Positions 18,312 to 39,916 are shown, counted from the first letter of the stretch. The stretch is DNA of 49,831 nucleotides from Bacillota bacterium (GCA_021848765.1 JAJZTU010000002.1:1-49831); one strand, 5' to 3'. The notes: generated by a model not told the origin, from the sequence alone. Translations and numbers: made by a program.

Positions 18312-18314
18312 TGA

Positions 18315-23707: not shown

Positions 23708-24367
23708 CTAACGCTCTTGGTTATTCTTAAGCCCGCAAATATCCAGCAGGTCAGAAAAATGTCCCAATACAAAGTGGGGCTTCTGTTCCTGCAGTGTTTC
23801 CCGGGGATGGACACTCCACCCTACAGCAGCGCTGGAAACTCCTGCGTTGAGGGCACATCTGAGATCATAGGGACTGTCCCCGACCATCAGCGCCCCTTCC
23901 TTCCCCTGGCTAAGCTGATGCAGGGCCAGCTCAATAGGTTCCGGGTGGGGTTTAGGGTTTTTTACATCTTCAATAGTTATGCAGGTCCTAATGAACTGGT
24001 CAAGACCAAATAGCTTTAACCCCCACTGGCTGGTCATTTTCAGCTTGGAGGTCACTACGCCCAGGGTTACCCCCGCCTTTTGCAGAGCTTCCATAGTTTC
24101 AAAGATTCCCGGGAAAACCTTAATCAACTCATCATGGTTGGCGTACATAAAATCCCTGTAAGTAGCAATAAGCTCATCCACCCGGTTAGCATCATACCTG
24201 GCCAGAGTGTCCCGCAGGGGTTCCCCAAAGTAGGGGTAAAACTCTTCATCGGACAACTGTAAGCCCAGATGCCTGCTCAGGGTGTGTTGAAAGGACTTAA
24301 TGATGAGATCATTAGTATTAAGGATAGTTCCATCTAAGTCAAATAATACACAGGAAAAAGTCTTCAC
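23708..24367 (-). CDS. HAD-superfamily hydrolase (PpaX/phosphoglycolate-phosphatase-like subfamily IA)
   Basis: HAD motif I is VLFDLDGTILNT, motif II VVTSK and motif IV GDSPYD. It uses a GTG start after AGGGGG. Substrate is not assignable. Confidence 0.8.
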   Translation of the reverse strand: MKTFSCVLFDLDGTILNTNDLIIKSFQHTLSRHLGLQLSDEEFYPYFGEPLRDTLARYDANRVDELIATYRDFMYANHDELIKVFPGIFETMEALQKAGVTLGVVTSKLKMTSQWGLKLFGLDQFIRTCITIEDVKNPKPHPEPIELALHQLSQGKEGALMVGDSPYDLRCALNAGVSSAAVGWSVHPRETLQEQKPHFVLGHFSDLLDICGLKNNQER

Positions 24368-24602
24368 CGCTAAGCCCCCTAACCTCTGCCATTAAAAACC
24401 AGAGTTCACCGTAAAACAGCTATAAAGCGCGTCATTACTTAATTTGTTATAAAATTTCTATACTAATTTTACAGTATCTTCGCCGGAGAAACAACCATGC
24501 GAACTAACTTGAAATTATTCGCCCGGGAAACACCGGCGTTATCGGCAGAGGCTTTGGCTAGTTGGTTTGAGTTCCTTTCTCCTGAAGTTGATATCTAAAT
24601 TA

Positions 24603-25976
24603 TTATATAATCTTTCCCGGGTTTAACAAATTGTTTGGATCACAACTCCGTTTTACCTTCTTAAACGCCTCTATTGCCACCGGCGAAAACTCCAAACCCA
24701 AATACTCCTTCTTTAACAGACCGATTCCATGTTCACCGCTCATGGTCCCTTTGAGTTCAAGTGCTACCCGGCACATCTCCACCTCGGCCTCATGCACCCG
24801 GTGTACTTCATCCTTTATTCTTTGGTCAAAAAGCACCAGAGGGTGGCAATTCCCGTCTCCGGCATGGGCCAAAATTCCGATAGCTAAGTTATATTTTTTG
24901 GAACAATTCACAATGCCGTTAACCATCGCCGGAAAGTTAGATCTGGGAACCGTAATATCCTGTAATGAATAATTTGGACGCCTACGTGCAACTGAGCCGA
25001 TAACTGTCCTCCTGGCCAACCACAATTGATCAACTTCCTGTGCCGTACGGGCTATTTTAAATTCCCTTACCCCGGCCCGGTTACAAATGGTTTTAATTAA
25101 TTCAACCTGGGCATCTAAATCCACATCATAGCCATCTACTTCAATTATCAAAAGCGCTCCTGCATCTCTAGGTAAGCCGACCTTGCAGTGATCCTCTGCT
25201 GTGTTAATCAGCAGGTTATCCATCATTTCTAAGGTAGTTGGAATGATTCCCGCAGCGACAATATCCGCAACGGTTTGAGAAGCAGCTTCCACTGCCTCAT
25301 AGATTGCAAGCATGGTGCGCTTGGCCGGAGGTTTAGGAAGGATTCGCACTGTAATTTTGGTAACCAGGCCGAGAGTACCCTCTGAACCCACAAACAGGCG
25401 AGTTAAATCATAACCTGCTTCACTGTTCCAGTGTCGCCCCCCTGTTTCAATAACCTTACCGTCCGGCATAACCACCTCGAGACCTAAAATATAGTCCCGT
25501 GTTACCCCATATTTAAAGCAGCGAGGCCCCCCTGAACACTCTCCCACGTTGCCTCCCATGGTTGAAGCTTTGTAACTGGCAGGGTCAGGAGGATAATAAA
25601 AACCTATTTTATCAAGTTTTTCCTGTAAATCAAAATTTACAACACCCGGTTCTACCACCGCAACAAAGTTATCTTTATCTATCTCCAGGATTCTGTTCAT
25701 TCGGCTAAAGCAGATAACTATACTATCCTTTACCGGTACACTTCCACCACTAAGATTCGTTCCAGCGCCCCTGGGAACTAAAGGAATTTGGACTTCGTTT
25801 AAGTACTTTACCAATTCAACTACGTGTTGTGCATTACTGGGGAAAACAACTCCTAGAGGCAATTGGGTCAACAAAGTTGCATCATAACCATAGGCTACTA
25901 AGCTTACCTTGTCAGTAACTACGTTTTCCTTACCCAATATCTTTATTAATTTCTTAATCACGAACTCATTTAACAT
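24603..25976 (-). CDS. FAD-linked 2-hydroxyacid oxidase/dehydrogenase, GlcD-like catalytic subunit
   Basis: It has an FAD_binding_4 (PCMH) N-domain (VPRGAGTNLSGGSVP) and a C-terminal GEHGIGLLK motif. The ATG at 25976 follows GGGGGGA. An alternative start lies at 26000. Confidence 0.88.
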   Translation of the reverse strand: MLNEFVIKKLIKILGKENVVTDKVSLVAYGYDATLLTQLPLGVVFPSNAQHVVELVKYLNEVQIPLVPRGAGTNLSGGSVPVKDSIVICFSRMNRILEIDKDNFVAVVEPGVVNFDLQEKLDKIGFYYPPDPASYKASTMGGNVGECSGGPRCFKYGVTRDYILGLEVVMPDGKVIETGGRHWNSEAGYDLTRLFVGSEGTLGLVTKITVRILPKPPAKRTMLAIYEAVEAASQTVADIVAAGIIPTTLEMMDNLLINTAEDHCKVGLPRDAGALLIIEVDGYDVDLDAQVELIKTICNRAGVREFKIARTAQEVDQLWLARRTVIGSVARRRPNYSLQDITVPRSNFPAMVNGIVNCSKKYNLAIGILAHAGDGNCHPLVLFDQRIKDEVHRVHEAEVEMCRVALELKGTMSGEHGIGLLKKEYLGLEFSPVAIEAFKKVKRSCDPNNLLNPGKII

Positions 25977-25990
25977 AATATCCCCCCCGG

Positions 25991-27319
25991 TTAATTCCAT
26001 AGACTTACACCTGGAGCCAATATACCCTTCGGATCAAACTGGGTTCGTAGCCGGTTCCCCAGATTCATTATCTCATTATACATTTCCATGTCATTTTTTG
26101 CCTTGCACAGTAGTTTGCGTCCCAGACTATGGGAGATATTTCCACCAAGCGACATGGCTAAATTATTGATTTTATCCAAAAGCGACTCGAGCGATTGTGC
26201 AGTAATATTATTGGGAATTAATCTTATGTTTCCGGTAAATCCATATACAATTAGTCCTGGACAGTTAGCCAGGTCACCAGTGATATCTTCCAATCCCTTT
26301 AAGGCTTTACCTATATTCGCCGGCCCAACGAAGAAGTCAACCCCGGTAGAATCACCTGAATTTAACCCGGCCTTAACCTCTAACCAACTATCCCAAATAC
26401 TCTCGTACTGCTCACAATCTTTAATGATTTGGACGTCACTGGCACCGTAAAGATTAAAAACACCGGCAATCTCTTCTGATAATTGCCTGGTAGATTCCTT
26501 AAAGCCCTCTAAATCAACCATTGCCAGATAATCAGAACTTACATTAAGTCCCGGTTTACCGGCAACAATATTTTGGGCCAGTGGCCAATTTAGTAAATTC
26601 AACCTGGTGGGATAAATACCACGGGCGATAAGCGTAGTGAATACTGAGCAGGCCTTCTGAGGGGAGGCAAAGCTCGCCAGCACGGTTTGTCTGGATGCAG
26701 GTTTGGGCAACAGCTTTATCAGCAGCTTTGTAAAAATACCCAGCGTACCTTGACTGCCCACCATAAAATGAATCAAATCATAGCCCGATACGTTTTTGAT
26801 ACATTTGTTACCCACATACAATATTTCTCCGGTAGGTAAAACCATTTCCCATCCCAGAATATAAGTTCTAGGGGTCCCAAAATTAAAAGACTTGGAATCC
26901 GCTCCTCCAATAGCAAAACACCCGCCAAGGGAACTTGTAAAACTATTAAAAGGCTCAGGAGGAAAATCTAAACCTGCTTCGGAAACCTTTTGCCGGAATT
27001 CCTTATGTGAAAGCCCGGGCTCCACAATCGCTACCAAGTTTTCACGGTCTATCTCCAAAATCTTATTCATCCGTCCTAAACCCAAGGCAAGGCACCCGTC
27101 CATTCCTTTAATATCTACGATATTGCCGCCCACAGCAATTTTCAGATTCATTTCATTAGCTAATTTTACCACACCGGATACTTGAGAAGTATTTCCCGGT
27201 AATACAACTGCCAAGGGCTTGCCGTTTCCCTTTAAATACTTGAGCATCTCAGGTGCATACTGAATAACATTCTCATTGCCAACCAATTCCCTGATTCTGT
27301 TAATTGCAGTTTCTTTCAT
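25991..27319 (-). CDS. FAD-binding PCMH-type protein, GlcE-like partner subunit (divergent)
   Basis: It has the same fold as the neighbouring gene (…GTLGIFTKLLIKLLPKP…), but the glycine-rich and C-terminal catalytic motifs are degenerate. The ATG at 27319 follows GAGGGGTG. Confidence 0.75.
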   Translation of the reverse strand: MKETAINRIRELVGNENVIQYAPEMLKYLKGNGKPLAVVLPGNTSQVSGVVKLANEMNLKIAVGGNIVDIKGMDGCLALGLGRMNKILEIDRENLVAIVEPGLSHKEFRQKVSEAGLDFPPEPFNSFTSSLGGCFAIGGADSKSFNFGTPRTYILGWEMVLPTGEILYVGNKCIKNVSGYDLIHFMVGSQGTLGIFTKLLIKLLPKPASRQTVLASFASPQKACSVFTTLIARGIYPTRLNLLNWPLAQNIVAGKPGLNVSSDYLAMVDLEGFKESTRQLSEEIAGVFNLYGASDVQIIKDCEQYESIWDSWLEVKAGLNSGDSTGVDFFVGPANIGKALKGLEDITGDLANCPGLIVYGFTGNIRLIPNNITAQSLESLLDKINNLAMSLGGNISHSLGRKLLCKAKNDMEMYNEIMNLGNRLRTQFDPKGILAPGVSLWN

Positions 27320-27380
27320 TGTATTCACCCCTCTACTCATACCCGTCATCTAAACTCACCTTGCACCCTGCCCTCACCCG

Positions 27381-28835
27381 CTACCCGATACGTTCAATAC
27401 TTCCTCTCATCAGTGCAATAATTTCAACAAGTGTTTCTTTGTTTCCTACATTGCCGGGAAAGACAACATAAGGCATTCCCGGAAACTTCGTTTCCTGACC
27501 TAATAACCAGACCGGAATTCCCGGATAAACCTGCCCCAGTACTTTGGCAGCTTTAACTCCCAGGCCGCTTGTTGCCACATCGTTGGAAGTTATACCGCCT
27601 TTAGCTACTAAAAACCGGGGTTGCACTTCTAACCCCTGCACAATCTTAACCAAGGATGCGGACACTTTATTACCTACCGACAAGTTTCCTTCTTTGCTCG
27701 AGTGGGTAACAAGCTGCCGGCTGGTATAAACCATAACATCATTTCCTTGCCTGATCAGGTCATTAACCTTGGCGCTCACTCTCTCGATTTCTTCATCTCT
27801 TGTCGTAGGCTCCAAAATTTTAAGTACATCGACTTCAATTGCCCGTAAACCGGGCAGCTTTATAGCTGCCTCTATCTGGCTGCTGGTCTTGCCTACATAA
27901 GAGCCAACCACAACCAATCCGCCTAAATTTTCAGATCCGGGGATAGATAATTCCTGATGGTTTAGAAGAGACCGGCTGGAAATGCCGCCACGCACTTTTA
28001 CGAAAGAAGCGCTCGATCTAACTATAAAGCGTTTTCCTTGGGCCTCTGCATCTAATAGACCTAAAACGAACACTTCCAGATCTCTATAGGAAGCGCTGTT
28101 GACAACAATAGTTTTTCCACCGGTTACCCGGGCCAGCTTTTGAGCTACCAGTCGGGGGCCTCCGGTCCTAATCTCAGAAACGCCAATACTGATAACATCC
28201 CTGACCGCAATCCTGCCACCGGTCTTTTCTTCTATATATAAGCCCAAATTGGAATTACGATAGCCAAATACACTATCCCGGGCAAACTCTGTCTCAGCTG
28301 CAGGAATCAAAAACTTGCCGTCTTGTACAAAATGAGTGTCGCCAATTGTATATCTTCCGCCCTCCAAAAAAACGGGAACCAGGATTTGCCCGGCAAATAT
28401 TAATCCTTTTTCACCTAAAACCTCTTCGAGGACCTCCACCTCATCGGGGAAATGCCCCCGTAAGGTGGAGTCCCCACGGCTGATCACTGTAAATTCGCAA
28501 CCCAGTTCACTGGCAGCTTGACAGAGATTGTTGGCGATTTCAGCGTTGATTTCTCTGGCCTTTTCCCTCGGAAGGCTGCGAGTGTTAGTCAGGATGAAAA
28601 AGAGATCTTCTTCACTTCCCAGGGAGTTTTTCAATTCTTCCACAGTCCAACTTGTTCTGACAAAAATCCCGTGGACAGTTTGAGAACCGGTCGGGTCATC
28701 GTCTAAAACGACAACCTTCCTTTTCAACTCTTTTACATTCTGCTGGATCTTAAACAGCAAATTACTGTCAGGCCATTCAGGCGGCAGTTCCCCAAACAGC
28801 TCCTCTTTAACCAGCACGCCGCTACTTTCTTTCAT
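27381..28835 (-). CDS. DUF1537 four-carbon acid-sugar kinase family protein (OtnK/DtnK-like)
   Basis: 484 aa. The N-domain has VVVLDDDPTGSQT and SRGDSTLRGH. The C-domain has KGGITSNDV and VFPGNVG. These are typical of the DUF1537 kinase family. Confidence 0.85.
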   Translation of the reverse strand: MKESSGVLVKEELFGELPPEWPDSNLLFKIQQNVKELKRKVVVLDDDPTGSQTVHGIFVRTSWTVEELKNSLGSEEDLFFILTNTRSLPREKAREINAEIANNLCQAASELGCEFTVISRGDSTLRGHFPDEVEVLEEVLGEKGLIFAGQILVPVFLEGGRYTIGDTHFVQDGKFLIPAAETEFARDSVFGYRNSNLGLYIEEKTGGRIAVRDVISIGVSEIRTGGPRLVAQKLARVTGGKTIVVNSASYRDLEVFVLGLLDAEAQGKRFIVRSSASFVKVRGGISSRSLLNHQELSIPGSENLGGLVVVGSYVGKTSSQIEAAIKLPGLRAIEVDVLKILEPTTRDEEIERVSAKVNDLIRQGNDVMVYTSRQLVTHSSKEGNLSVGNKVSASLVKIVQGLEVQPRFLVAKGGITSNDVATSGLGVKAAKVLGQVYPGIPVWLLGQETKFPGMPYVVFPGNVGNKETLVEIIALMRGSIERIG

Positions 28836-28866
28836 TTCACCACCTCATTTGCTGCCTGGACTTTGC

Positions 28867-29808
28867 CTACTTCTTGGCTGAAATCACTTCTTTCACGGCT
28901 TTGATGATATTTTCTCTGGTTAAACCAAGAGCTTCATGCAGTTCCGGCATTTTTGCGGACAGGCCAAATCTATCCTGGACACCAACCATCCTTACAGGTA
29001 CCGGGAGATTCTGGGCCAAAAGCTCCGCTACAGCGCCGCCAAGACCCCCGATTACCGTATGTTCTTCAGCTGTCACCACCGCTCCGGTCCTGGAAGCAGC
29101 CTCAAGAATACAACTGCTGTCCAGAGGTTTTATAGTATGCACATTAATAACGTCAACAGAAATCCCTTCAGCCTTTAATTCTTCCGCAGCTTCCAATGCC
29201 TTGGAAAGCATCACTCCACAGGCTAAAATGCTTGCATCTTTACCCTCAAGATACACATTAGCCTTTCCAATCACAAACCGGCCTGCTTCCCGGTTAACTA
29301 TCGGAGTAGGCATCCGGCCAACCCGCAGATAGGCAGGTCCTTCATGTTCTCCTAATGCCCGGACTGCCTTTGCCATTTCAACCCCGTCAGCAGGCTCAAT
29401 TACTGTCATCCTTGGCAATGCTCTCATCAGAGTAATATCTTCCAGCGGAAGATGAGTCGGCCCCTCCTGGCCGGGTGATGTGCCGGAATTATGTCCGATA
29501 ACCTTTACATTAAGATTGGCATAACAAACTGAAATTCTTATTTGATCCCAGGCTCTCCCGGTCAAAAAGTTGGCATAGGCATTAACAAAAGGAGTTTTAC
29601 CTGCCAGGGCCAAGCCCGCTCCTGTCCCAACCAGGTCCGCCTCCGCAATTCCTAGATTAAAAAACCTGTGGGGAAACTCTTTTTGAAACAATGAGGTCAT
29701 GGTGGCTTTCGAACAATCCGCATCAAGTACAAGAATGTCTTCGTTTTCCGCCCCCAATTGAACCAGAGCTTTGCCAAAGGCTTCCCGTGGCGCCAGAGTT
29801 TTGCTCAT
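28867..29808 (-). CDS. transketolase, C-terminal (pyrimidine-binding) subunit
   Basis: 313 aa starting REAFGKALVQLG, with FNLGIAEADLVG and a C-terminal transketolase domain. It starts 1 nt after the N-subunit stop. Confidence 0.92.
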   Translation of the reverse strand: MSKTLAPREAFGKALVQLGAENEDILVLDADCSKATMTSLFQKEFPHRFFNLGIAEADLVGTGAGLALAGKTPFVNAYANFLTGRAWDQIRISVCYANLNVKVIGHNSGTSPGQEGPTHLPLEDITLMRALPRMTVIEPADGVEMAKAVRALGEHEGPAYLRVGRMPTPIVNREAGRFVIGKANVYLEGKDASILACGVMLSKALEAAEELKAEGISVDVINVHTIKPLDSSCILEAASRTGAVVTAEEHTVIGGLGGAVAELLAQNLPVPVRMVGVQDRFGLSAKMPELHEALGLTRENIIKAVKEVISAKK

Positions 29809-29809
29809 T

Positions 29810-30637
29810 CTATCTCAACTCCTTCAATGCAATTTCTAACTGTTCATCATTGGGTGCAACACCGTGCCAACCCACTTGATTTTCCATAAACGATACACCT
29901 TTACCCTTTACGGTATGGGCCAAAATCACAGTGGGCCTCCCCTTGACCTCCTTAGCTTTTTCGAATGAGTTATAGATTTCCTGCAGATGATGACCGTCTA
30001 TTTCAATGGCATTCCAACCAAAGGCCTCCCACTTGGCACGCAGGCTGCCCAAGGTTTTTACTTCATCAACCGGTCCATCCAACTGCAAACGGTTATAATC
30101 TACTATCGCACAAACATTATCCAGTTTATAGTGAGCTGAGGTCATGGCTGCCTCCCATACCTGACCTTCCTGGATCTCACCGTCTCCCAGGAGAACATAT
30201 GCCCTTTGCTCTGTGCCTTTTAACCTGGCCGCAAGAGCAACCCCATTGGCAATAGACAAACCTTGCCCTAGAGACCCTGAAGAAATATCTACGCCGGGGG
30301 TACACTCACTGCTTGGATGCCCGTGTAAACGGCTGCCTGCCTGGCGTAAAGTCATTAATTCCTCTGCCGGAAAAAAACCTCTCTCTGCAAGAGCAGCGTA
30401 CAATACAGGTGCAGCATGGCCCTTAGATAGAAAAAAGTAATCGCGCCTGTCCCAATCCGGATTTTCAGGGTCAACTCGCATTATCTTCATATAAAGGACT
30501 GCCATCACTTCCACTGCAGACAAAGAACCCCCCGGATGACCACTTCCGGCTTTATTGGTTGTCGTTAAAATCCACTGTCTCATCCTCTTGCAGTTGTCAG
30601 CCAGTTCGTGTAACTGAGGTTCAACAAATTGCACCAT
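29810..30637 (-). CDS. transketolase, N-terminal (ThDP-binding) subunit
   Basis: 275 aa with GSGHPGGSLS, KGHAAP, GSLGQGLS and GDGEIQEGQVWEA, which are the ThDP/Mg motifs. Confidence 0.92.
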   Translation of the reverse strand: MVQFVEPQLHELADNCKRMRQWILTTTNKAGSGHPGGSLSAVEVMAVLYMKIMRVDPENPDWDRRDYFFLSKGHAAPVLYAALAERGFFPAEELMTLRQAGSRLHGHPSSECTPGVDISSGSLGQGLSIANGVALAARLKGTEQRAYVLLGDGEIQEGQVWEAAMTSAHYKLDNVCAIVDYNRLQLDGPVDEVKTLGSLRAKWEAFGWNAIEIDGHHLQEIYNSFEKAKEVKGRPTVILAHTVKGKGVSFMENQVGWHGVAPNDEQLEIALKELR

Positions 30638-30699
30638 TTTTTACCTCCCAGTTATCAAAATTTTCATGTCAGTTAAGACCTCGGCCCTTGATCTATTTT

Positions 30700-31941
30700 T
30701 TACCGGTAAGCCTGAGCTAACAAATCAGCTATATGAACCACTTTTTGTTCCTTTCCCGCAAGCCTCAAGGACCCCTGAATTCTATGCTGGCAGGCCGGGC
30801 AGCTGGTCACTACCAATTCAGCATTGGTCTCTTCAATATTCCGGACCTTCTGGGCCGAAATATCCTTGGCAATATCATGGAAATAAGCCTGGAAGAGTCC
30901 GGAGGCGCCACAGCAACGGCTGGCTTCCGCCATCTCCACAAATTGTATACCTGGAATACTTTTTAGAATTTTTCGAGGCTGTTCGGTAATTCCTTGACCA
31001 CGGACCATATGACAGGGGTCATGGTAGGTAACTCTTGCAGGATTTGGTAAGAGTGTGACCGTATCCAGCTCAAAGTTGTCCAATAAAAACTCCGAAAAAT
31101 CAAAAACCTTTTGACAAAACTCCTTTACCTTGGGCAGGAAGTTTGGCTCATCGGCAAAAAGTTCTGGATAATGCTCCTTTAACATGGATCCACAGGACGC
31201 ACAGGCTGTAATTACGGCATCCACACCATAGTTTTCGAACAGTAGAATATTTGTGCGCGCTACTTCCTTGGCAGTTTCAAATTCCCCGTACGAAAACATG
31301 GGAGTTCCGCAACAAACCTGCTGTTTGGGTACTATTACCTCACATTGGTTACTGTTTAGAACCTTAATAACAGAGTGCCCTGTACCGTCCATAGTGTGAT
31401 TCATCATACACCCTACAAAGAATGCTACGCGTTTAACCGGATTCTGAACAGCGTTAAATTCGGGAACCTGATCGGTAAATTTTTCACTGGCAACCGGTAG
31501 ACCTTTAACATCAATTCCCCGGAATTCTGCAAATCCTCCGAGACGATTTAGAATGGTCCTGCGGAAACCGTCAAAAAATTTAAACGCTAACTCCAAATTC
31601 CCCGGTTTAGGAAAGACCCACTTTAACCCTACAGCTTTGCTAAAAGGTAACCCTTGTTTCAGTTTCAGATCTCGCCGTGCAGCTAAAATCAGCTTGTGGG
31701 CTTTAACTCCACTGGGACAGGAAACTGCACATTCACCACACAACAAACAGCTATTAATGGCATTTTCATAGGCCTCATCAATCTCGAGTTCCCCGTCAGC
31801 TACAGCTTTGATTAATCTGACCCTTCCCCTTGGAACATATACCTCACTTAAATGGGTTTTGTAAACTTTACAAGCGGTATGACAGAAACCACACCTGGCA
31901 CAGGTGTTAAGCGCTTCATAAACTTCATCGAGAACCCCCAT
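30700..31941 (-). CDS. Fe-S oxidoreductase, GlcF/HdrD-like (two 4Fe-4S motifs plus two CCG domains)
   Basis: It has CARCGFCHTAC and CLLCGECAVSCP ferredoxin motifs, plus VCCGTP and RCCGASG CCG motifs. At 413 aa its size matches GlcF. Confidence 0.85.
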   Translation of the reverse strand: MGVLDEVYEALNTCARCGFCHTACKVYKTHLSEVYVPRGRVRLIKAVADGELEIDEAYENAINSCLLCGECAVSCPSGVKAHKLILAARRDLKLKQGLPFSKAVGLKWVFPKPGNLELAFKFFDGFRRTILNRLGGFAEFRGIDVKGLPVASEKFTDQVPEFNAVQNPVKRVAFFVGCMMNHTMDGTGHSVIKVLNSNQCEVIVPKQQVCCGTPMFSYGEFETAKEVARTNILLFENYGVDAVITACASCGSMLKEHYPELFADEPNFLPKVKEFCQKVFDFSEFLLDNFELDTVTLLPNPARVTYHDPCHMVRGQGITEQPRKILKSIPGIQFVEMAEASRCCGASGLFQAYFHDIAKDISAQKVRNIEETNAELVVTSCPACQHRIQGSLRLAGKEQKVVHIADLLAQAYR

Positions 31942-32010
31942 CTAACCCCCCCTCCTTTACCCCAGGGCCCTTCAGCCCTGGGGAAATATTTAAACGCTAT
32001 GAAATTGGTC

Positions 32011-32925
32011 CTAAAGTCTGGCCCAAGCCTCCCGTAGAGTGCGTTTGGCATTGGCGATTATTAAATCAGGTTCTTCACCTTGCATTGGCCTCACTTCGAA
32101 GGCCACTACTCTGGGATCATTGTCACGCAAATATCCGATATCCAGTAAAACCTTCAAGAATTCAGTCAGTTCAGGCACATCAACATCTCCTTCAGCAATA
32201 CCAAAACGGGGATGCTGATCACCGTAAGCCGGATGATTGTTATGCTTTGTAATACAGTTGCCGATATGAACGTGTACTAAATGATCTTTGGCAATGGTCA
32301 GGCTTTCCCGCGCTGTTTCCCTCTGCTGCGGCAAATGACTTAAGTCAATCATTAAGCCAAAATTTGAACAGACTTTCTTGACCCCTTCAGCTACTTTAAC
32401 AGCATCCCCGGTGGAACCAATAAGGCAGCATTTGTCCACGTCCCGGTCAAAGACTTCCAGAATTATGCCCAGACCAAATTTTTCTTGGGCATAACTACAA
32501 ATGTCTGTTAAAGAAGCGACCAACAATTCAAGGGCAGCCGGTCTTTGTAGATCTCCCGGGTCACGGCCGCTTAGAAGGGCGAGATTTTTAGCCCCTACCT
32601 GGTATGCCTGTTCCAGCAGCTCTTTAATCCTGGTTACTGCGTTAGACCTTTCCTGGGCATCAAAAGAATTAAGATTCAACTTGTTGCCTAACTGTACGGG
32701 CTGAGCTCCAAATCCAACGGCTAAACGGGAGTGGTGTAAAATTGTGCCTGCTTTGCCTCTGATTTCCGGATCGTTAATCCTGGTTACTTCTATGGCCCCG
32801 AAAAAGTCGTCAGTGGCAATTTTGCTTATAGTTTCAATAATCGGGCCATCACCGCCAATTGTAGCAGGGTAGGCCATAAATTGAACAATTCCAACCTTCA
32901 TCATGGAATGAAGATCTTTCAGCAT
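32011..32925 (-). CDS. xylose-isomerase-like TIM-barrel protein (sugar phosphate isomerase/epimerase; Hyi/OtnI/IolE-like)
   Basis: 304 aa. The metal-ligand pattern ...LEVF.., DLSH, HVHIGN, FEV is typical of the AP_endonuc_2 fold. A strong SD (AGGAGGG) precedes it. Confidence 0.8.
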   Translation of the reverse strand: MLKDLHSMMKVGIVQFMAYPATIGGDGPIIETISKIATDDFFGAIEVTRINDPEIRGKAGTILHHSRLAVGFGAQPVQLGNKLNLNSFDAQERSNAVTRIKELLEQAYQVGAKNLALLSGRDPGDLQRPAALELLVASLTDICSYAQEKFGLGIILEVFDRDVDKCCLIGSTGDAVKVAEGVKKVCSNFGLMIDLSHLPQQRETARESLTIAKDHLVHVHIGNCITKHNNHPAYGDQHPRFGIAEGDVDVPELTEFLKVLLDIGYLRDNDPRVVAFEVRPMQGEEPDLIIANAKRTLREAWARL

Positions 32926-32951
32926 CCGGATACCCTCCTATTGTTATTACT

Positions 32952-34724
32952 TTAGACGGTTTCCTTTACACCTTTAATAGTGCCGTCTCTGGATACTGAA
33001 CAGACAGCCAGAGGATCTACCAGCACTTCAATTAAATACGGACGTTCCAAGGCAAAAGCCCTGTCCAGGGCTTCCCGGATTTGTTCTGGTTTTTCTACCA
33101 GTTCTGCACCCACACCCATTGATTTAGCCAGGGCCACAAAATCAATCCCCCGGTTATGACCCATTTCTGCATTTTCATAATCCAGCTCAGTGGATATCCA
33201 CCGCTCGTTGAAGAATAAGTTTTGCTGCTGGCGGATTAAGCCGAGGAGTGAGTTGTTAAGCAGGAATACTACAACAGGGATATTATGCTTAGCTGCCGTA
33301 GCAAGGTCCTGAAGAGACATCCCTAAACTGCCATCGCCCAGCAGATTTACACATTGCACCTCAGGTTTGGCCAATTTTGCTGCCATGGCTGCACCAAGAC
33401 CCCAACCCATAGTTCCTGCCCGGCCGGTTATTAAATATGTTCTAGGCTCATAAGAATCAAACAATTGGGAAGACCAAATCTGGCTAATACCGCAATCATG
33501 GGTAACAATGGCATTTCTCTTCAAGTGTTTCCGCAACTCAGCGATAGCCTGTTGGGGTTTCATCGGGATGGTGTCAAACTCGGTCTGCCGTGCCAATTTA
33601 GGCTTGTCCTCCCCTAAGATTCTGATTCTTTCTTCTGCCTTGTCGTCAGGCTGAAAATTATTGCTCTTTATTACTGCATTCAGTTTTTGTAAAAACCCTT
33701 TTAAGTCAGCGGCTATCCCCAATTCGGTTGGAACCTGGCGGCCTATTTCCTGTTCGTCAAAGTTGACATGAATGATTTTACGTCCTTCTTTAAATACACC
33801 TACACTACCGGTGCCCCGGTCACCAAAACGCCCGCCCAAGCAAATAACCAAGTCAGACTCCAGAATTGTTTTATTGCCAAGGGGTGTCTGACAGATGGTA
33901 CCCATCATACCTGCAAATAACTCGTGATCATTCGGGAAACAGTCTTTGCCCATCAGTGTGCAAACCACCGGAATCCGAAGAGTCTCCGCCAAAGTCATCA
34001 ACTCAGAAGTTGAGTCAGACAATACCACTCCACCCCCCACCAATAAGACAGGGCGCTCCGCTGCTTTGAGCATCTCAAAAGCCTTCTGCACTTCTTTATC
34101 GGTAGCCTGAGGCAGAACTTCCGGCTCCTCTGCGACTAATTCACTGAGATCGACTTCAACCATTCCCTTCTGTACATCAAGAGGCAGGTCAATTAACACC
34201 GGACCTTTACGACCGGTGGTAGCTGTCCGCCAAGCTTCTTTGATAATTTTGGGCAACTCCTCAGCTTTTTCTACCAGGTAAGCTGCTTTAGTAACCGGCT
34301 TAGCCATTTCTGTAATGGGAGCTTCCTGGAATGCATCTTTACCTACGAAGGCAAAAGGTACTTGGCCTGTGAAAGCAAGCAACGGTACAGAATCTACATA
34401 TGCGCTGTAAAGTCCGGTTAAAAAGTTAGTGGCAGCGGGTCCTGATGTACAGGCACAAACCCCAACTTTCCCGGTAACTCTGGAATATCCGTCAGCCATA
34501 AAAATTGCCATTTGTTCGTGACGAACTACATAAGAGTGAATCTTGTCACTGTCCAAAACCGCATCATAAAAAGGCAGTATGGCAGCACCTGGGATTCCGT
34601 ATAATTGAGTAACCCCTTTCTGTTCTAAAAAATAAACAAGTACCTGTGCTGCTGTCATCTTTTGCGTAATCGCTTCTTGCTGCAGATTTGTTTCCCCTTC
34701 TTTTTCTGTTCCCCAAAGAGCCAT
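32952..34724 (-). CDS. thiamine-diphosphate enzyme of the acetolactate synthase / glyoxylate carboligase family
   Basis: 590 aa with GIPGAAILPFYDA, RHEQMAIFMADGYSR, TSGPAATN and a C-terminal GDGS...NN ThDP motif (LLGDGSLGMSL...LNNS). A strong SD (AAGGAGGAG) precedes it. Confidence 0.88.
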   Translation of the reverse strand: MALWGTEKEGETNLQQEAITQKMTAAQVLVYFLEQKGVTQLYGIPGAAILPFYDAVLDSDKIHSYVVRHEQMAIFMADGYSRVTGKVGVCACTSGPAATNFLTGLYSAYVDSVPLLAFTGQVPFAFVGKDAFQEAPITEMAKPVTKAAYLVEKAEELPKIIKEAWRTATTGRKGPVLIDLPLDVQKGMVEVDLSELVAEEPEVLPQATDKEVQKAFEMLKAAERPVLLVGGGVVLSDSTSELMTLAETLRIPVVCTLMGKDCFPNDHELFAGMMGTICQTPLGNKTILESDLVICLGGRFGDRGTGSVGVFKEGRKIIHVNFDEQEIGRQVPTELGIAADLKGFLQKLNAVIKSNNFQPDDKAEERIRILGEDKPKLARQTEFDTIPMKPQQAIAELRKHLKRNAIVTHDCGISQIWSSQLFDSYEPRTYLITGRAGTMGWGLGAAMAAKLAKPEVQCVNLLGDGSLGMSLQDLATAAKHNIPVVVFLLNNSLLGLIRQQQNLFFNERWISTELDYENAEMGHNRGIDFVALAKSMGVGAELVEKPEQIREALDRAFALERPYLIEVLVDPLAVCSVSRDGTIKGVKETV

Positions 34725-34775
34725 TTCTTCTCCTCCTTAAAATTAATGATTCTATCCTTTTACTCAAACCATAGA

Positions 34776-36137
34776 TTAATGGGAAATATCCTCCAGCGCC
34801 CTTCCTTTGGTCTCTTCCCCCAGAACCAGTACCACCAGGGCAGCGATTATAAAGGAGGCAGCACCCAGGGCAAAGACTCCGGATTGGCCGGCCTTTGGTA
34901 ATACAAGAGCTACAATATATGGACCTAAAAGCGAACCCAGACGACCGATTGAAGAAGCCATCCCTGCCCCCGTGGCCCTGGCCCGGGTAGGATAAAGTTC
35001 GGGAGTATAAGCGTATAAGACAGACCACATACCAAACATAAAAAACTGCATACATAAACCGTAAGTAACGAGGGCGGTTACATTAGCGGCTGTACCGTAG
35101 AAATAGGCAGCAGTTGCGGAACCGAGCAGCATGATTGCAGCAGAAGGTTTACGGCCAAGGGCTTCAACCAGATAAGCTGCTGTAAAGAACCCAGGTACAC
35201 CTGCCAGAGAAATAGTCAGAGTATAGAACACTGATTTAGTTACTGAGTAGCCGGCCTGCTGCAGAAAGGCACCCAGCCAAGTGGTTAGGCCATAATAACC
35301 CAGCAGGGCAAAAAACCATAAGGACCAGACCATAATTGTCCGCTTAACGTACCCAGGTGACCACAGGTCCAGGAAGGAAAACTTTCGCTCACCTGAATCG
35401 ACAACATTAGGTACCTTCACCGGAGGGGGTAACTCCTTAAGACCCGAAGCTGTTTGCACTTTTTCTTCGAAAGCGGTCATTACTTTATCGGCTTCTTGAT
35501 TACGGCCAACGCTTTCCAGCCAGCGAGGTGACTCCGGAACAAACCTGCGAATAATCAGTACAAAAATCGCGGGAATACCCTCGGCTAAAAATACCCAGCG
35601 CCAACCACCGACGGGCAGAATAAAGTAAGCCAGCAAACCAGCCCCGAGAAAACCAAGAGGCCAAAAACCTTCTAATAAGGCAATGTAGCGACCGCGTTTA
35701 GAGGCAGGGATAAATTCAGATATTAAAGACTGGCCAATCGGGAATTCCATTCCCATTCCAAAACCTAACAAAATCCGGAAAATTGCCAGTTGAGTTGGTG
35801 TTTGAGCCGCAGCGCAAAGGAAACTGGCCAAGCCCCATAATACCATACTCCACTGAAAGACAACTTTACGACCGAAGCGGTCGGCCAGCATGCCGGATAT
35901 ACCGGCACCTAAAAACATCCCCAAAAAACTGGCACTGGATAAAAGGCCGGCCTGGACAGCAGTTAGCTTAAAAAATGTCTTGAGAGAACCTAAAACGAAG
36001 GTCAGCATAGCCAGATCCACGGAATCGAAGAACCATGCAGTAGCAATAATCAAGAATATTTTATTTTGGTAGGAGCTTAGAGGCAATCGTTCCAGCCTTT
36101 GGGGAATGCCGACATGTTGATTTAACTGTACAGACAT
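34776..36137 (-). CDS. MFS transporter (Sugar_tr/metabolite:H+ symporter type)
   Basis: 12-TM profile with GMLADRFGRK and PESPRWL motifs. The start is at ATG 36137 (SD AAGGGAG) or ATG 36143. Confidence 0.9.
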   Translation of the reverse strand: MSVQLNQHVGIPQRLERLPLSSYQNKIFLIIATAWFFDSVDLAMLTFVLGSLKTFFKLTAVQAGLLSSASFLGMFLGAGISGMLADRFGRKVVFQWSMVLWGLASFLCAAAQTPTQLAIFRILLGFGMGMEFPIGQSLISEFIPASKRGRYIALLEGFWPLGFLGAGLLAYFILPVGGWRWVFLAEGIPAIFVLIIRRFVPESPRWLESVGRNQEADKVMTAFEEKVQTASGLKELPPPVKVPNVVDSGERKFSFLDLWSPGYVKRTIMVWSLWFFALLGYYGLTTWLGAFLQQAGYSVTKSVFYTLTISLAGVPGFFTAAYLVEALGRKPSAAIMLLGSATAAYFYGTAANVTALVTYGLCMQFFMFGMWSVLYAYTPELYPTRARATGAGMASSIGRLGSLLGPYIVALVLPKAGQSGVFALGAASFIIAALVVLVLGEETKGRALEDISH

Positions 36138-36151
36138 ATTCATTCTCCCTT

Positions 36152-36793
36152 CTACTTTGCAACCAGTAATACATTAGCTTTGGAAACAGCATCCCCGGCA
36201 TCGGGTGAAAAGAAGTCTGCGCCGATAGAATCAGCAAATTTCTGGGTAACCGGGGCACCGCCCACACCTATAAATACGCTCTCGCGCAAACCGCTATCCG
36301 CAATAACCTTGATGGTTTTGCCCATAACCTCCATGGTCGTAGTGAGCAATGCACTCATCAACACAAAGTCAGGACTATGCTCCTTAATTGCTTGGACAAA
36401 GTTTTCCGGCGATACATTAATGCCAATATCCACTATCTCGTAACCGCCACCCTCCATCATCATGCACACCAGATTTTTGCCAATGTCGTGCAAATCTCCC
36501 TGAACAGTTCCAATAACCGCTTTACCTTTAGTTGCAGCATTCTGGCCGGCCAACAGCGGTTTGATGATGTTAAGACCGGCGTACATTGCCCGAGCGCCGA
36601 TCATCATTTCAGAAATAAAGAATTCACCTTTCTGGAACTTTTCACCCACAGTGCTCATGGCAGGGATTAATCCTTCATTGAGAATAGCCTGTGGTGTTAT
36701 ACCCGAATCCAGAGCGGCTTGAGTCAGTTCATCTACTTTTGCCTGTTGTCCATTTATTACAGCTTCTTGAATTTCAATTAATAAATTTGACAT
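36152..36793 (-). CDS. corrinoid (B12-binding) methyl-carrier protein, MtvC/MtaC/MtgC-like
   Basis: 213 aa. An N-terminal helical cap precedes a Rossmann B12 domain with DxHxxG (GDLHDIGKN), SALLTTT and GGAPV. The ATG at 36793 follows GGAGGGA and lies 2 nt after the upstream stop. Confidence 0.9.
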   Translation of the reverse strand: MSNLLIEIQEAVINGQQAKVDELTQAALDSGITPQAILNEGLIPAMSTVGEKFQKGEFFISEMMIGARAMYAGLNIIKPLLAGQNAATKGKAVIGTVQGDLHDIGKNLVCMMMEGGGYEIVDIGINVSPENFVQAIKEHSPDFVLMSALLTTTMEVMGKTIKVIADSGLRESVFIGVGGAPVTQKFADSIGADFFSPDAGDAVSKANVLLVAK

Positions 36794-36795
36794 CT

Positions 36796-37893
36796 TTATC
36801 CCTCCAGCGGGTATTTCCCGTATTTTTTGATTGCATTGGACATAGCCCATACATTCTCAACTTTACAATAATCAGTTAAGCTGTTGGCACTGCTGATAAT
36901 ATAACCACCGCCGGGTCCAGCTGTAAGAATGCGGTTACGTACTTCTGCATCCACTTCTTCTTCAGTGCCAAGGGGCAGGGTATAATCCAAATCAATATTA
37001 CCAACAATACAAACTCGATGTCCGTATTCTTTTTTCATTTTGCCAATGTCCATAGCTGCAGGTTGAAGAGGGTGAATAGCGGTCATTCCCAGGCTCAGCA
37101 AATCTTCCATAATGGGAAAAAGGTTACCGTCACTGTGGAAAATCCATGGTTTTTTTATACGTTCAGCTACGATACGCATATTAGGCAAAAAACATTCGCG
37201 AAATATTTTGGGTGACATGAAGGGTCCATGGTTACCTGCCAAGTCATCATTGCACCAAAAGAAGTCAAAATCCATTTCATTTAGATGGTCTACAACCTGG
37301 GCCGACCACTCCGAAAAACGCAAGTGAATCTTTTTAATTAGTTCCGGGTTATCCACGGTAGCATAACTAAATTCATCCAAACCCATACTCTCAAGGGTCG
37401 AAGATGCGCCCAGCCGTATGCGGGCAAAGACCGCATAATCCCCTTTATATTGTTTGATCCATTCAGCTACCTTCTCATACCTGGCAGGATGATGGGGATC
37501 TGGTAAAAATTCATCGAATAAAGCAAGCGATTCTTCTGAAACCAGCAGCCCTTTTTCAATGTAAGTACGTCCTGTGTCCTGATCCGCACCCATTTTAGCA
37601 ATCCAGGGAGGGACGAAATCGAAGGTGACTTTCTTAGGATAATAGTAGCTCTCTTTATAGGTTTCTTTAGTCTGCATAGCTTGACCATCTGAAGCTTGTC
37701 CCATAGGATAGTGAGCGCCAAAAGCGCTAAGACCAAGCTTTTCACATAGCTCCGGGGGAGTAAAATTCGCTGTCCCCATAATTTGTACCTGTAATGCTTC
37801 TTCAATATCATTTTCTACCCAGGGAACCTGATCCGGTACTCCTCTGTTCAGAGCTGTTAACACGCGTTCGCGGGGCGTCATGCTCATTTTCAT
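36796..37893 (-). CDS. uroporphyrinogen-decarboxylase-family (URO-D/MtaA/MtvB-like) methyltransferase
   Basis: At 365 aa it has the length and TIM-barrel pattern of URO-D-family corrinoid methyltransferases (…FFWCNDDLAGN…IFHSDGN…). It is translationally coupled to the corrinoid protein gene. Confidence 0.8.
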   Translation of the reverse strand: MKMSMTPRERVLTALNRGVPDQVPWVENDIEEALQVQIMGTANFTPPELCEKLGLSAFGAHYPMGQASDGQAMQTKETYKESYYYPKKVTFDFVPPWIAKMGADQDTGRTYIEKGLLVSEESLALFDEFLPDPHHPARYEKVAEWIKQYKGDYAVFARIRLGASSTLESMGLDEFSYATVDNPELIKKIHLRFSEWSAQVVDHLNEMDFDFFWCNDDLAGNHGPFMSPKIFRECFLPNMRIVAERIKKPWIFHSDGNLFPIMEDLLSLGMTAIHPLQPAAMDIGKMKKEYGHRVCIVGNIDLDYTLPLGTEEEVDAEVRNRILTAGPGGGYIISSANSLTDYCKVENVWAMSNAIKKYGKYPLEG

Positions 37894-37956
37894 TCCTCCT
37901 AATCGTTATTGGCTAATAATAAATAGTGCTGCTTACTTGAAACCGCTTCATCCTTC

Positions 37957-38007
37957 AACGACTACCTAACGACTTAAAAACGACTACCTAACGACTTAAA
38001 TACGATA
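37957..38007. repeat. heptamer AACGACT (minus AGTCGTT) repeated four times at an exact 11-bp period, plus a degenerate fifth copy
   Basis: Copies start at 37957, 37968, 37979 and 37990, with TACGATA at 38001. Equivalently this is 2.2 copies of a 22-nt unit. The array lies in the 131-nt spacer between DUF1638 and the URO-D methyltransferase. Confidence 0.95.
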
Positions 38008-38024
38008 TTACTCACCTCCTTTGA

Positions 38025-38690: not shown

Positions 38691-38770
38691 GGACGATCAT
38701 CTCCAGTCTTGCTTATCGCCGACCCCTTCACACAGGTTAAATTCGAACAATTTTATCAGCATTCCTAAGC

Positions 38771-39565: not shown

Positions 39566-39671
39566 TTAAAATATACCTCCTTTTATCTAGCCCTGATATG
39601 GAAGGGTATGAACGCGGTAACTTATAGCAATAAATAAGGTTTGGTTATAACCGGTCTCGGCCTAATCTAGC

Positions 39672-39889: not shown

Positions 39890-39916
39890 ATAAAAAAAAG
39901 GCCTAACCTAGGCCTT
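39890..39916 (-). terminator. rho-independent terminator of the activator gene
   Basis: AAGGCCT-AGGTT-AGGCCTT followed by TTTTTTTT, immediately after the stop codon. Confidence 0.8.

Follow-up and report, generated by a model that had tools for sequence, protein, structure and literature searches.

A conserved gene cassette for possible redox-neutral glyoxylate assimilation, in a predicted operon with a corrinoid demethylase module, in a Bacillota bacterium

A stretch of 49,831 nucleotides from a Bacillota bacterium (GCA_021848765.1 JAJZTU010000002.1:1-49831; referred to as the window) carries, at positions 24603-34724, a set of carbon-handling genes that an earlier note, made from the sequence alone, had likened to parts of several known pathways. 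We analyzed this set computationally and propose, as a tentative reading that falls just short of what we would call probable, that it serves glycolate and glyoxylate assimilation, is co-transcribed with a corrinoid demethylase, and includes a redox-neutral branch to dihydroxyacetone phosphate (DHAP). This reading is a hybrid of two routes considered before, i.e., a C2 route via tartronate semialdehyde (reading a) and a C4 acid-sugar route built around a DUF1537 kinase (reading b). Judged by gene order and sequence identity, the seven proteins form a conserved, uncharacterized syntenic cassette, and not a local ad hoc mosaic; no description of it was found in the literature searched.

All open reading frames (ORFs) predicted for 24603-34724 were present, with domain matches far beyond chance. 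The carbon-handling half comprises eight minus-strand ORFs encoding seven proteins, as the transketolase is split over two ORFs, and its spacers range from -10 to 69 bp. The features, with predicted functions, are as follows (ThDP, thiamine diphosphate; TIM, triosephosphate isomerase; FAD, flavin adenine dinucleotide; MT, methyltransferase; CoP, corrinoid protein):

24603-26000, minus strand: FAD_a, GlcD-like catalytic flavoprotein subunit (465 aa; FAD-oxidase_C 1e-64, TIGR00387 514 bits)
25991-27349, minus strand: FAD_b, divergent GlcD/GlcE-like flavoprotein (452 aa; FAD_binding_4 6e-22, FAD-oxidase_C 2e-15)
27381-28835, minus strand: DUF1537 kinase (484 aa; SBD_N, PF07005, 9e-54; NBD_C, PF17042, 4e-40)
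28867-29808, minus strand: transketolase C half, the Pyr and C domain subunit (altered substrate-phosphate site by residue alignment)
29810-30637, minus strand: transketolase N half, the PP-domain subunit (Pfam Transketolase_N 5e-55)
30700-31941, minus strand: GlcF-like Fe-S/CCG protein (413 aa; Pfam CCG 2e-40 and Fer4_8; two 4Fe-4S motifs, two CCG domains)
32011-32925, minus strand: xylose-isomerase-fold TIM barrel (304 aa; Pfam AP_endonuc_2 6e-19)
32952-34724, minus strand: ThDP enzyme (590 aa; Pfam TPP_enzyme N/M/C, about 1e-41 to 1e-44)
34776-36143, minus strand: MFS importer, aromatic-acid/H+ symporter-like (Pfam MFS_1, Sugar_tr; TIGR00895 281 bits, under cut-off)
36152-36850, minus strand: CoP, corrinoid (B12-binding) protein (Pfam B12-binding 3e-25, B12-binding_2 2e-21)
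36796-37893, minus strand: MT I, URO-D-family substrate:corrinoid methyltransferase (Pfam URO-D 2e-19)
38025-38690, minus strand: DUF1638 protein (Pfam DUF1638 2.5e-39)
38771-39565, minus strand: MT II, pterin-binding methyl-corrinoid:tetrahydrofolate methyltransferase (Pfam Pterin_bind 9e-24)
39672-39687, minus strand: sigma-54 (-24/-12) promoter TGGTATGACTTTTGCA, about 106 nt upstream of the first operon gene
39917-41638, minus strand: PAS-domain sigma-54 enhancer-binding activator (Pfam Sigma54_activat 2e-70, PAS, HTH_50)

Because only short spacers separate the genes and the one perfect -24/-12 element follows the terminator of the activator gene, the carbon half is predicted to form the 3' portion of a 13-gene sigma-54 operon, which starts with the corrinoid methyltransferase module and the MFS transporter. 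The element TGGTATGACTTTTGCA is the sole perfect TGGYAYR-N4-YTGCW match in the window, and a 10-bp terminator hairpin (39918-39896) ends the activator gene just upstream of the promoter.

The cassette recurs in other genomes. On JGI contig L043, the order is ThDP enzyme, TIM barrel, Fe-S protein, transketolase N and C halves, DUF1537 kinase, cyclophilin-like protein, two flavoproteins, and cupin, and the shared proteins are, in this order, 75, 68, 59, 74, 77, 62, 46, and 70% identical to those of the window. Three ENA contigs show the same gene order, with a NAD_binding_2 dehydrogenase and a class II fructose-bisphosphate (FBP) aldolase added right after the kinase. These sister contigs were reached via homologs of the TIM barrel; neighbors in genome loci were annotated with a simple longest-ORF caller, tblastn, and Pfam tallies. 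The note was correct in describing the transketolase and kinase genes as lying between the GlcF-like gene and the two flavoprotein genes, and as L043 and the ENA contigs share this order, the separation is ancestral to the cassette. The mosaic postulated from the window alone holds in that no textbook pathway is completed, but the combination is not local. By contrast with the cassette itself, the genes in front of it vary: a corrinoid demethylase and an MFS importer in the window; IclR, a TRAP transporter, and a UxaA/SuyAB-type dehydratase on L043 (with an SDR and malate synthase G downstream); and IclR and a pyruvate:ferredoxin oxidoreductase (PFOR) on the ENA contigs. Among 401 sampled genomes of the phylum, 44 had the TIM family, 10 the DUF1537 subfamily, and 5 the ThDP clade, and only the window's genome combined all three; the cassette was found in none of the 5 genomes of the class. 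The TIM-barrel scan of genome contigs yielded one informative locus, in a Desulfobacteraceae metagenome-assembled genome (MAG), with a Mo-hydroxylase, 2-Hacid_dh, and an aldehyde:ferredoxin oxidoreductase (AOR).

Several related loci deserve mention on their own account. Related cassettes encode a cyclophilin-like protein (PF04126) after the transketolase or kinase gene and a small cupin after the GlcD-like gene (L043 15570-15950 and 18807-19145; L045 13017-13391; L078 8913-9251), the cupin being 65% identical between L043 and Desulfosporosinus SB140. Neither companion was found in the window operon or in its genome, an assembly that is 83% complete; they could be either accessories or catalytic components that are missing here. 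On L046 (NCBI MAG contig CDLUJB010000145.1), the TIM barrel (66%) lies with the Fe-S and two flavoprotein genes (57, 48, and 71%) among a SuyAB-like split dehydratase, an aldehyde dehydrogenase, an SDR, an Fe-dependent alcohol dehydrogenase, a TauE-family exporter, and an MFS transporter; no Gcl, transketolase, or kinase was found there, and the locus may be a sulfonate or other hydroxy-acid variant of the module. A further, conserved operon (L026, 4371-10504, genome G276) consists of GntR, a Zn-dependent MDR dehydrogenase, a split transketolase, a D-2-hydroxyacid dehydrogenase, and the TIM barrel; genes for GlcD, FeS, IclR, and Gcl lie on a different contig of G276.

We strongly infer that the ThDP enzyme is a glyoxylate carboligase of a Firmicute clade that retains the catalytic Glu, converting 2 glyoxylate to tartronate semialdehyde and CO2. 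Its closest solved relatives are Gcl (416 bits, vs. 352 bits for acetolactate synthase, ALS), and it is 39.6% identical to E. coli Gcl vs. 32.9% to IlvI. A maximum-likelihood tree, a placement called for in the earlier note, put it in a well-supported Firmicute clade apart from acetohydroxyacid synthase (AHAS), E. coli Gcl, PoxB, and Oxc; outside this clade, IlvI grouped with the IlvB of the window's genome (support 100/99). Alignment confirmed that the catalytic Glu is kept as RHEQ, as first read from the sequence, and the same residue occurs in all 15 aligned clade members, while E. coli Gcl has RHVE (Val51). Despite this Glu, the clade is read as a carboligase because its genomic contexts relate to glyoxylate and allantoin. 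In Syntrophobotulus glycolicus, which specializes in glycolate and glyoxylate, a protein with 63% identity is encoded in a gcl-hyi-glxR-glxK cluster, where the genes after the carboligase are 44, 43, and 49% identical to E. coli Hyi, GlxR, and GlxK, respectively. In two other genomes, relatives of 63-64% identity take the Gcl position in the order allantoin permease, amidohydrolases, Gcl, Hyi, and tartronate-semialdehyde reductase (TSR), and the oxalotroph Ammoniphilus oxalaticus has a relative of ~60% identity beside TSR and IclR. A protein of 'Ca. Dichloromethanomonas elyunquensis' annotated as Gcl is 66% identical. In the glyoxylate-fermenting strain RM of this organism, a Gcl ranked with the most strongly induced proteins, rising by a log2 fold change of +8 to +9 during growth on dichloroacetate, from which glyoxylate is formed (PMC8092247); this induced Gcl may be the clade member found in the same organism. 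Two other assignments were rejected. An AHAS was discarded on account of a TIGR00118 score 7 bits short of the cut-off (531.4 vs. 538.35), the separate clade, and the lack of any IlvN/IlvH-like small-subunit ORF in the locus, and IolD was not among the best 25 of 56 family matches. The Firmicute clade appears to be a genuine carboligase group, whose members are now annotated as acetolactate synthase or generic thiamine pyrophosphate-binding protein.

Glyoxylate would be supplied by the flavoprotein/Fe-S trio, for which oxidation of glycolate is the simplest and most likely reading. FAD_a is 40% identical to E. coli GlcD and comes close to the cut-off of TIGR00387 (513.9 vs. 567.9), and FAD_b is a degenerate second flavoprotein (26% identical to GlcD). 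With the GlcE model, FAD_b and FAD_a score 87.6 and 93.3 (cut-off 284), and the Fe-S protein, 24% identical to E. coli GlcF, reaches 160 vs. 333 with the GlcF model. The three-subunit make-up of GlcDEF, with two FAD_binding_4 proteins and one Fe-S/CCG protein, is nevertheless present. The trio is kept as a unit in L043, L046, L051, and L078, with ortholog identities of 54-61% (Fe-S), 46-58% (FAD_b), and 66-71% (FAD_a). In two Desulfitobacteriaceae MAGs (L051, L052), it lies directly upstream of the genes for activator, MT II, MT I, CoP, and MFS (FeS 61%, flavoproteins 58 and 69%), and none of the other cassette genes were found in these MAGs. Furthermore, L094 and L095 combine a GlcD-like gene (57-58%), FeS (46-48%), IclR, and a Gcl-clade gene. 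Given the contexts of the Gcl clade and the trio orthologs beside Gcl or the methyltransferase module, reading (a) is well supported as far as tartronate semialdehyde. Separately, contig C347 (6549-12181) carries a GlcD-like gene (46% to FAD_a), an Fe-S/CCG protein, LutB/LutC-like proteins, and a GntR regulator, which is probably the organism's lactate-utilization system.

Beyond tartronate semialdehyde, reading (a) had relied on a Hyi-like TIM barrel, which as to family membership did not hold. The gene sits at the hyi position, immediately after the gcl-type gene, but its product belongs to neither Hyi nor OtnI: it scores 22.4 bits with the Hyi model TIGR03234 (cut-off 353), BLASTP gave no match to E. 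coli Hyi or YgbM at E < 1e-3, and S. glycolicus Hyi had no tblastn match in the window's genome. Orthology to Hyi or OtnI was rejected on these grounds, as was an IolE-type identity, the protein matching only IolO (37 bits vs. a cut-off of 300). What remains is remote profile homology to Hyi/OtnI (hhalign probability 93.8%, 254 columns, 18% identity), with E157, D194, H220, and E277 aligning with Hyi E143, D178, Q204, and E240. An AlphaFold2 (AF2) model with a predicted local distance difference test score (pLDDT) of 95.7 has ketose 3-epimerases, IolI, and Art22 as its nearest folds (TM score ~0.7, 15-22% identity). Based on this homology and the model, the TIM barrel represents a new family of enediol-type isomerases or epimerases, with 3522 database proteins at E <= 1e-20. 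Judged by the genomic contexts of the family, the substrate pair would be tartronate semialdehyde and hydroxypyruvate. The commonest neighbor of the family is a D-2-hydroxyacid dehydrogenase (10 of 19 genomes), and transketolases adjoin it in L026, L028, L036, and L045. In L045 (Atribacterota), the TIM barrel gene follows those of a GarL-type HpcH aldolase and a dihydrodipicolinate synthase (DHDPS)-family enzyme, with the transketolase nearby. The family also occurs in three of the four other Gcl-clade genomes, which represent two genera only, so that the enrichment is merely suggestive.

The transketolase is an extra paralog, since a housekeeping split transketolase is encoded on contig C224 (58% identical in the N half and 55%). 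Over both subunits, the residues for ThDP and Mg binding and catalysis are kept (H26, H66, H100, D155, N185, H261, E411, and H473 in E. coli numbering). The substrate pocket is changed at S385A, H461N (with a His one position earlier), and E468Q/D469E, while R358 and R520 are kept. These changes are common to the window and L043 only, as the housekeeping enzyme and a fused transketolase of Atribacterota keep the E. coli residues; the L026 transketolase has H461Y. Presumably, H461 interacts with the phosphate and D469 with the alpha-hydroxyl group of the substrate. In E. coli transketolase, S385 contacts the substrate phosphate, and mutations of R358, S385, D469, and R520 retarget the enzyme to non-phosphorylated aldehydes (PMC5073344, PMC7661550). 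The operon enzyme therefore probably does not use the canonical sugar-phosphate pair, and glyceraldehyde 3-phosphate (G3P) is an unlikely acceptor given the altered phosphate pocket. D469E was also considered as a sign of a glyoxylate acceptor, which was dropped, as the residue stays acidic. A phosphoketolase-based reading, at which no search was aimed, was likewise set aside.

By its domains, the kinase is unambiguously a genuine but divergent member of the DUF1537 acid-sugar kinase family. Its scores with the NCBIfam models for DtnK (71.1 vs. 450 bits), OtnK (44.6 vs. 350), and OiaK (36.5 vs. 700) are far under the cut-offs, so that orthology to OtnK, DtnK/DenK, and OiaK was rejected; BLASTP gave no match to E. 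coli YgbK, and the subfamily profile reached at most 44.6 bits with solved DUF1537 structures (4xfm, 44.6). Genomes that lack the TIM family encode relatives with 42-50% identity. In these loci, a dehydrogenase gene (of the SDR, NAD_binding_2, or 2-Hacid_dh type) and/or a gene for a TIM isomerase, Hyi-like or other, comes first, followed by DUF1537 and then by a class II FBP aldolase. This order suggests a kinase product of the type (P)OCH2-CO-CHOH-R, cleavable by a DHAP-type aldolase. The same motif characterizes the substrates of OtnK and OiaK and every transketolase product. Reading (b) is thus borne out in its true DUF1537 kinase and in the gene order of the relatives, but not in the expected OtnK, DtnK, or OiaK orthology. 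The absence of a PdxA2-type partner was confirmed, none being found in the locus or, by tblastn, in the genome.

Upstream in the operon, MT I, the corrinoid protein, and MT II are all encoded (URO-D, B12-binding, and Pterin_bind); no corrinoid activator gene was found in the locus, and four RACo homologs occur elsewhere in the genome. MT I is marginally similar to CdmB and MtaA (CdmB, E = 7e-7 over ~140 residues). Its orthologs (60-89%) are found in Desulfitobacteriaceae, Desulfosporosinus, Thermanaeromonas, Moorella-like genomes, Chloroflexota, Syntrophorhabdales, and Deltaproteobacteria, always adjoining an organic-anion importer, which may be the orthologous MFS (76-77%; L050, L051, and L098), TRAP-sized genes, or a Liv-type ABC transporter. 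Orthologs of MT II (70-75%) and of the sigma-54 activator (65-68%) occur with the same methyltransferase module in L049 and L051. The partners of the module differ, i.e., the dehydrogenase trio alone in L051 and none in acetogen-like genomes, and the constant theme among them appears to be a 2-hydroxy acid product. According to the account in PMC8048578, which cites Schuppert & Schink 1990, Acetobacterium converts methoxyacetate to glycolate and acetate. No gene assigned to methoxyacetate demethylation was found in the literature searched. By analogy, methoxyacetate is our leading candidate for the methylated substrate, and the B12 demethylase probably supplies the glycolate of the cassette. 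Literature hits connect DUF1638 with corrinoid methyltransferase systems, of which we take the protein to be an accessory; we also take it to have a link to split MetH. The Moorella ortholog of MT I might be MtvB; one paper gives such URO-D genes only as solitary 'mtaA' copies.

The rest of the genome fits this picture of the upstream module in that its gene content appears to be that of a dedicated anaerobic methyl-group user. Acetyl-CoA synthase (AcsB) is encoded on contig C372, and since the genome has this enzyme, the methyl group could enter the Wood-Ljungdahl pathway. As further observations, the four RACo-type activators and at least six further corrinoid-protein/methyltransferase loci are spread over contigs C314, C327, C372, C179, C337, C65, C238, and C218. 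In Desulfosporosinus SB140 (L049), the genes for a DmpF-like acetaldehyde dehydrogenase and an MFS importer (11891-12783 and 17415-18774) are each split into two ORFs, which suggests that this locus is decaying.

The proposed pathway would run as follows. On chemical and contextual grounds, the MFS importer would take in a methylated organic acid, with methoxyacetate as first candidate, and MT I, the corrinoid protein, and MT II would move its methyl group to tetrahydrofolate, leaving a D-2-hydroxy acid, most simply glycolate. The complex of GlcD-like, GlcD/E-like, and GlcF-like subunits would very likely oxidize glycolate to glyoxylate, and the ThDP enzyme, with similar strength of inference, would form tartronate semialdehyde. 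The further steps again follow from chemistry and context. In place of a canonical Hyi, the TIM barrel would interconvert tartronate semialdehyde and hydroxypyruvate, and the transketolase would use hydroxypyruvate as an irreversible C2 donor, with loss of CO2, to tartronate semialdehyde or glyoxylate. The acceptor would thus be a non-phosphorylated, carboxylated aldehyde, tartronate semialdehyde being the carboxylate analog of G3P, and the product a keto acid HOCH2-CO-CHOH-R, either 4-keto-pentonate or 3-oxo-tetronate. Phosphorylation of its terminal CH2OH by the DUF1537 kinase, followed by aldol cleavage or beta-decarboxylation, would yield DHAP and glyoxylate or CO2. The aldol variant of the last step would use a class II aldolase, such as the sister cassette encodes; the window's genome has a single copy, outside the operon on contig C255. 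In either variant, 3 glyoxylate and ATP would give DHAP and 3 CO2, with no NAD(P)H consumed. Such a reductant-free route fits the genome, in which tblastn found no Hyi, GlxR-type reductase/TSR, OtnI, OtnK, PdxA2-type protein, or malate synthase.

Several observations weigh against this pathway. No aldolase or decarboxylase for the last step was found in the window operon or on L043, and a GlxK-type glycerate kinase is encoded on contig C250, which makes a glycerate route possible; the completeness of 83% also weakens all calls of absence. The ThDP enzyme stays below the Gcl equivalog cut-offs (PRK11269, 528.9 vs. 791; TIGR01504, 455 vs. 711) and retains the Glu that is replaced by Val in proteobacterial Gcl. 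As the nearest folds to the TIM-barrel model are ketose 3-epimerases and not Hyi, the enzyme could be an epimerase. Since the side chain at position 469 remains acidic after the D469E change, the transketolase changes are no specific argument for a carboxylate acceptor. On the demethylase side, the methyltransferase module of L049 lies beside DmpFG, an SDR, a paralogous GlcD/FeS pair, LarA, and an FAA hydrolase, and AAHS-type MFS, TRAP, and Liv-type ABC importers would also fit methoxylated aromatic acids. Moreover, we know of no evidence that methoxyacetate is an abundant natural compound, although MT I is widespread.

A more far-reaching version of the proposal holds that this is an undescribed redox-neutral route from glyoxylate to triose phosphate, composed of a Glu-retaining Gcl, a new TIM isomerase, a specialized transketolase, and a new DUF1537 subfamily, and that the URO-D-type MT I is the first genetically defined O-demethylase for aliphatic ethers of the methoxyacetate type, so that the two together would allow both halves of an alkoxy acid to be used completely under anaerobic conditions. 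In this full form we consider it rather unlikely.

An alternative that we hold to be unlikely is catabolism of C4 acid sugars (tetronates). Here, the FAD/Fe-S dehydrogenase would oxidize D-erythronate or L-threonate to 2-oxo-tetronate, and an OtnI-like TIM barrel would form 3-oxo-tetronate, from which the DUF1537 kinase and a decarboxylation would lead to DHAP, or the transketolase to glyoxylate and a C2 unit, with Gcl salvaging the glyoxylate. The recurrence of D-2-hydroxyacid dehydrogenase, TIM barrel, and transketolase as a linear module (L026: GntR, Zn-ADH, TK_N, TK_C, 2-Hacid_dh, TIM) argues for this route, as do the dehydrogenases, Hyi/OtnI-like isomerases, and class II aldolases around DUF1537 relatives and the TRAP importer and UxaA-type dehydratase upstream on L043; on chemical grounds, 3-oxo-tetronate would also have the transketolase donor motif. 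However, orthologs of the dehydrogenase genes lie right beside Gcl or have the demethylase as their sole partner, which better matches a C2 substrate, and neither the kinase nor the TIM barrel is an ortholog of OtnK or OtnI. The weakened phosphate site of the transketolase speaks against G3P or xylulose 5-phosphate (Xu5P) as partner, and as a natural substrate of the demethylase, an O-methyl tetronate would be unusual.

The same genes could also make up an ordinary glycerate pathway from non-orthologous parts, which we regard as distinctly unlikely. The TIM barrel would act as a Hyi analog, a reductase encoded elsewhere would give D-glycerate, the DUF1537 kinase or the C250 GlxK would form phosphoglycerate, and the transketolase would only link to the pentose-phosphate pool. 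The gcl-hyi-glxR-glxK context of the ThDP clade is in line with this, and so are NAD_binding_2 beside DUF1537 in the ENA cassette, the GlxK and two 2-Hacid_dh genes of the genome, and the pairing of TIM barrel and 2-Hacid_dh as the commonest one. It would leave unexplained, though, that the transketolase is among the most conserved proteins of the cassette (74-77%), encoded between the Fe-S and kinase genes as a second paralog with a changed pocket. DUF1537 relatives pair with DHAP-type aldolases and not with enolase-pathway genes, and no TSR was found in the genome. The note's statement that TSR and glycerate kinase genes are lacking is accurate for the locus and, as to the reductase, for the genome searched, but not for the kinase in view of the GlxK-type gene on C250.

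We consider it very unlikely that the carbon half is unrelated to the demethylase or acts on lactate and pyruvate, with MT I demethylating a methoxylated aromatic acid or 2-methoxypropionate, the trio being a D-lactate dehydrogenase, and the ThDP enzyme an acetolactate-synthase-like carboligase. The importer families do fit aromatic acids, for which we take the CouP and TarP systems to be parallels; the TIGR00118 score lies near the ALS cut-off (531 vs. 538), and in Desulfosporosinus SB140 LarA and a GlcD/FeS pair adjoin the same methyltransferase module. On the other hand, the genes are predicted to be co-transcribed in a single sigma-54 operon, an orthologous dehydrogenase also adjoins the methyltransferase module in another gene arrangement, the ThDP clade has Gcl contexts and a position apart from AHAS, and the locus has no ALS small subunit. 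In addition, the genome already has a lactate-utilization cluster (C347) and an IlvB (C10). A sulfo-transketolase-like sulfonate route with an Xsc-like ThDP enzyme, the third reading of the earlier note, is extremely improbable: the split transketolase and isomerase and the L046 block of TIM barrel and dehydrogenase with a SuyAB-like dehydratase and a TauE-family exporter are in its favor, but the Xsc model PRK07525 gives 323.9 bits vs. a cut-off of 620, the FMADGYSR block once likened to Xsc is a generic ThDP motif (MADG) also present in IlvI and Gcl, genes for a sulfite exporter, a sulfo-lyase, a sulfoquinovose isomerase, and a sulfoacetaldehyde reductase are all missing from the window, and the contexts of the ThDP clade are glyoxylate and allantoin.

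Regarding its surroundings, the predicted operon is bordered on one side by the housekeeping genes ppaX-ctsR-mcsAB-clpC and on the other by a four-subunit 2-oxoacid:ferredoxin oxidoreductase and recR-ybaB-dnaX. The oxidoreductase (42099-44799, minus strand; alpha 361, beta 253, gamma 188, and delta ferredoxin 84 aa) is encoded directly upstream of the activator gene, and in the ENA sister cassettes a fused PFOR gene immediately precedes the ThDP gene. Because of the latter, the adjacency may be functional (oxidation of pyruvate, glyoxylate, or oxalate) rather than accidental. The window has a G + C content of 0.42-0.48 at 24001-42000, compared to 0.50-0.53 in the flanking housekeeping genes, and the TIM, kinase, ThDP-clade, and MT I genes were not found in two genomes of the same family. 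Composition and absence from these two genomes are consistent with horizontal acquisition.

To our knowledge, only the glycerate pathway and the malyl-CoA route are known for assimilation of glycolate and glyoxylate in strict anaerobes. If the glyoxylate-to-DHAP pathway proposed here is correct, the reductant-free transketolase and DUF1537 kinase branch would be a third solution. It would further give a physiological role to hydroxypyruvate-dependent transketolase chemistry, hitherto a tool of biocatalysis, and functions to three uncharacterized, widespread families, i.e., the TIM barrel, the DUF1537 subfamily, and the cyclophilin-like and cupin companions, and would be of interest for the design of synthetic C2 assimilation and photorespiration bypasses. 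The identity of the MT I substrate would reveal an overlooked source of methyl groups for subsurface acetogens and sulfate reducers.

Compared to known systems, the cassette resembles gcl-hyi-glxR-glxK (E. coli, S. glycolicus, and 'Ca. Dichloromethanomonas elyunquensis') in its glyoxylate hub, in a carboligase of the same clade as that of S. glycolicus (63%), and in the TIM-barrel gene next downstream. Unlike these clusters, the window locus has no GlxR or GlxK, but a split transketolase and a DUF1537 kinase instead; its TIM barrel belongs to another family than Hyi (18% profile identity), and its ThDP enzyme retains the catalytic Glu where E. coli Gcl has Val51. With E. coli GlcDEF, it shares a GlcD-like flavoprotein, a degenerate second flavoprotein, and a GlcF-like protein with two [4Fe-4S] and two CCG units. 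However, the second subunit is GlcD-sized (452 aa) and not GlcE-sized, the Fe-S gene lies three genes away from the flavoprotein genes in a conserved layout, GlcG is lacking (relatives have the cupin), and all equivalog cut-offs are missed.

The DUF1537 acid-sugar pathways reported by Zhang et al. 2016 and Carter et al. 2018 comprise LtnD/DenD, OtnI, OtnK, and OtnC, or DtnK/DenK with PdxA2, or OiaK. As in these, the cassette kinase is encoded near a 2-hydroxyacid dehydrogenase and a xylose-isomerase-fold enzyme, its relatives are followed by a DHAP-type aldolase, and its probable substrate carries a HOCH2-CO-CHOH-...-COO- motif. In contrast to them, the kinase reaches 37 to 71 bits vs. cut-offs of 350 to 700, the dehydrogenase is of the FAD/Fe-S and not the NAD type, OtnC and PdxA2 are lacking, and a transketolase and Gcl are added. 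AptAB of the apiose pathway and SqwGH of the sulfo-transketolase pathway are split transketolases acting on non-canonical donors. By analogy with these systems, the cassette has a two-gene transketolase with a modified pocket beside an isomerase in a catabolic operon, although its partners are Gcl and a glycolate-dehydrogenase-like complex and no apiose or sulfoquinovose genes are present. Finally, the upstream module matches the three-component O-demethylases OdmABCD, MtvABC, and CdmBCA in its URO-D-fold MT I, B12-binding protein, and pterin-binding MT II, with activators encoded elsewhere in the window's genome. It differs from them in that its MT I belongs to a separate conserved clade, always next to an organic-anion importer, and in that the module appears to be transcriptionally fused to the enzymes that consume the demethylated carbon skeleton.

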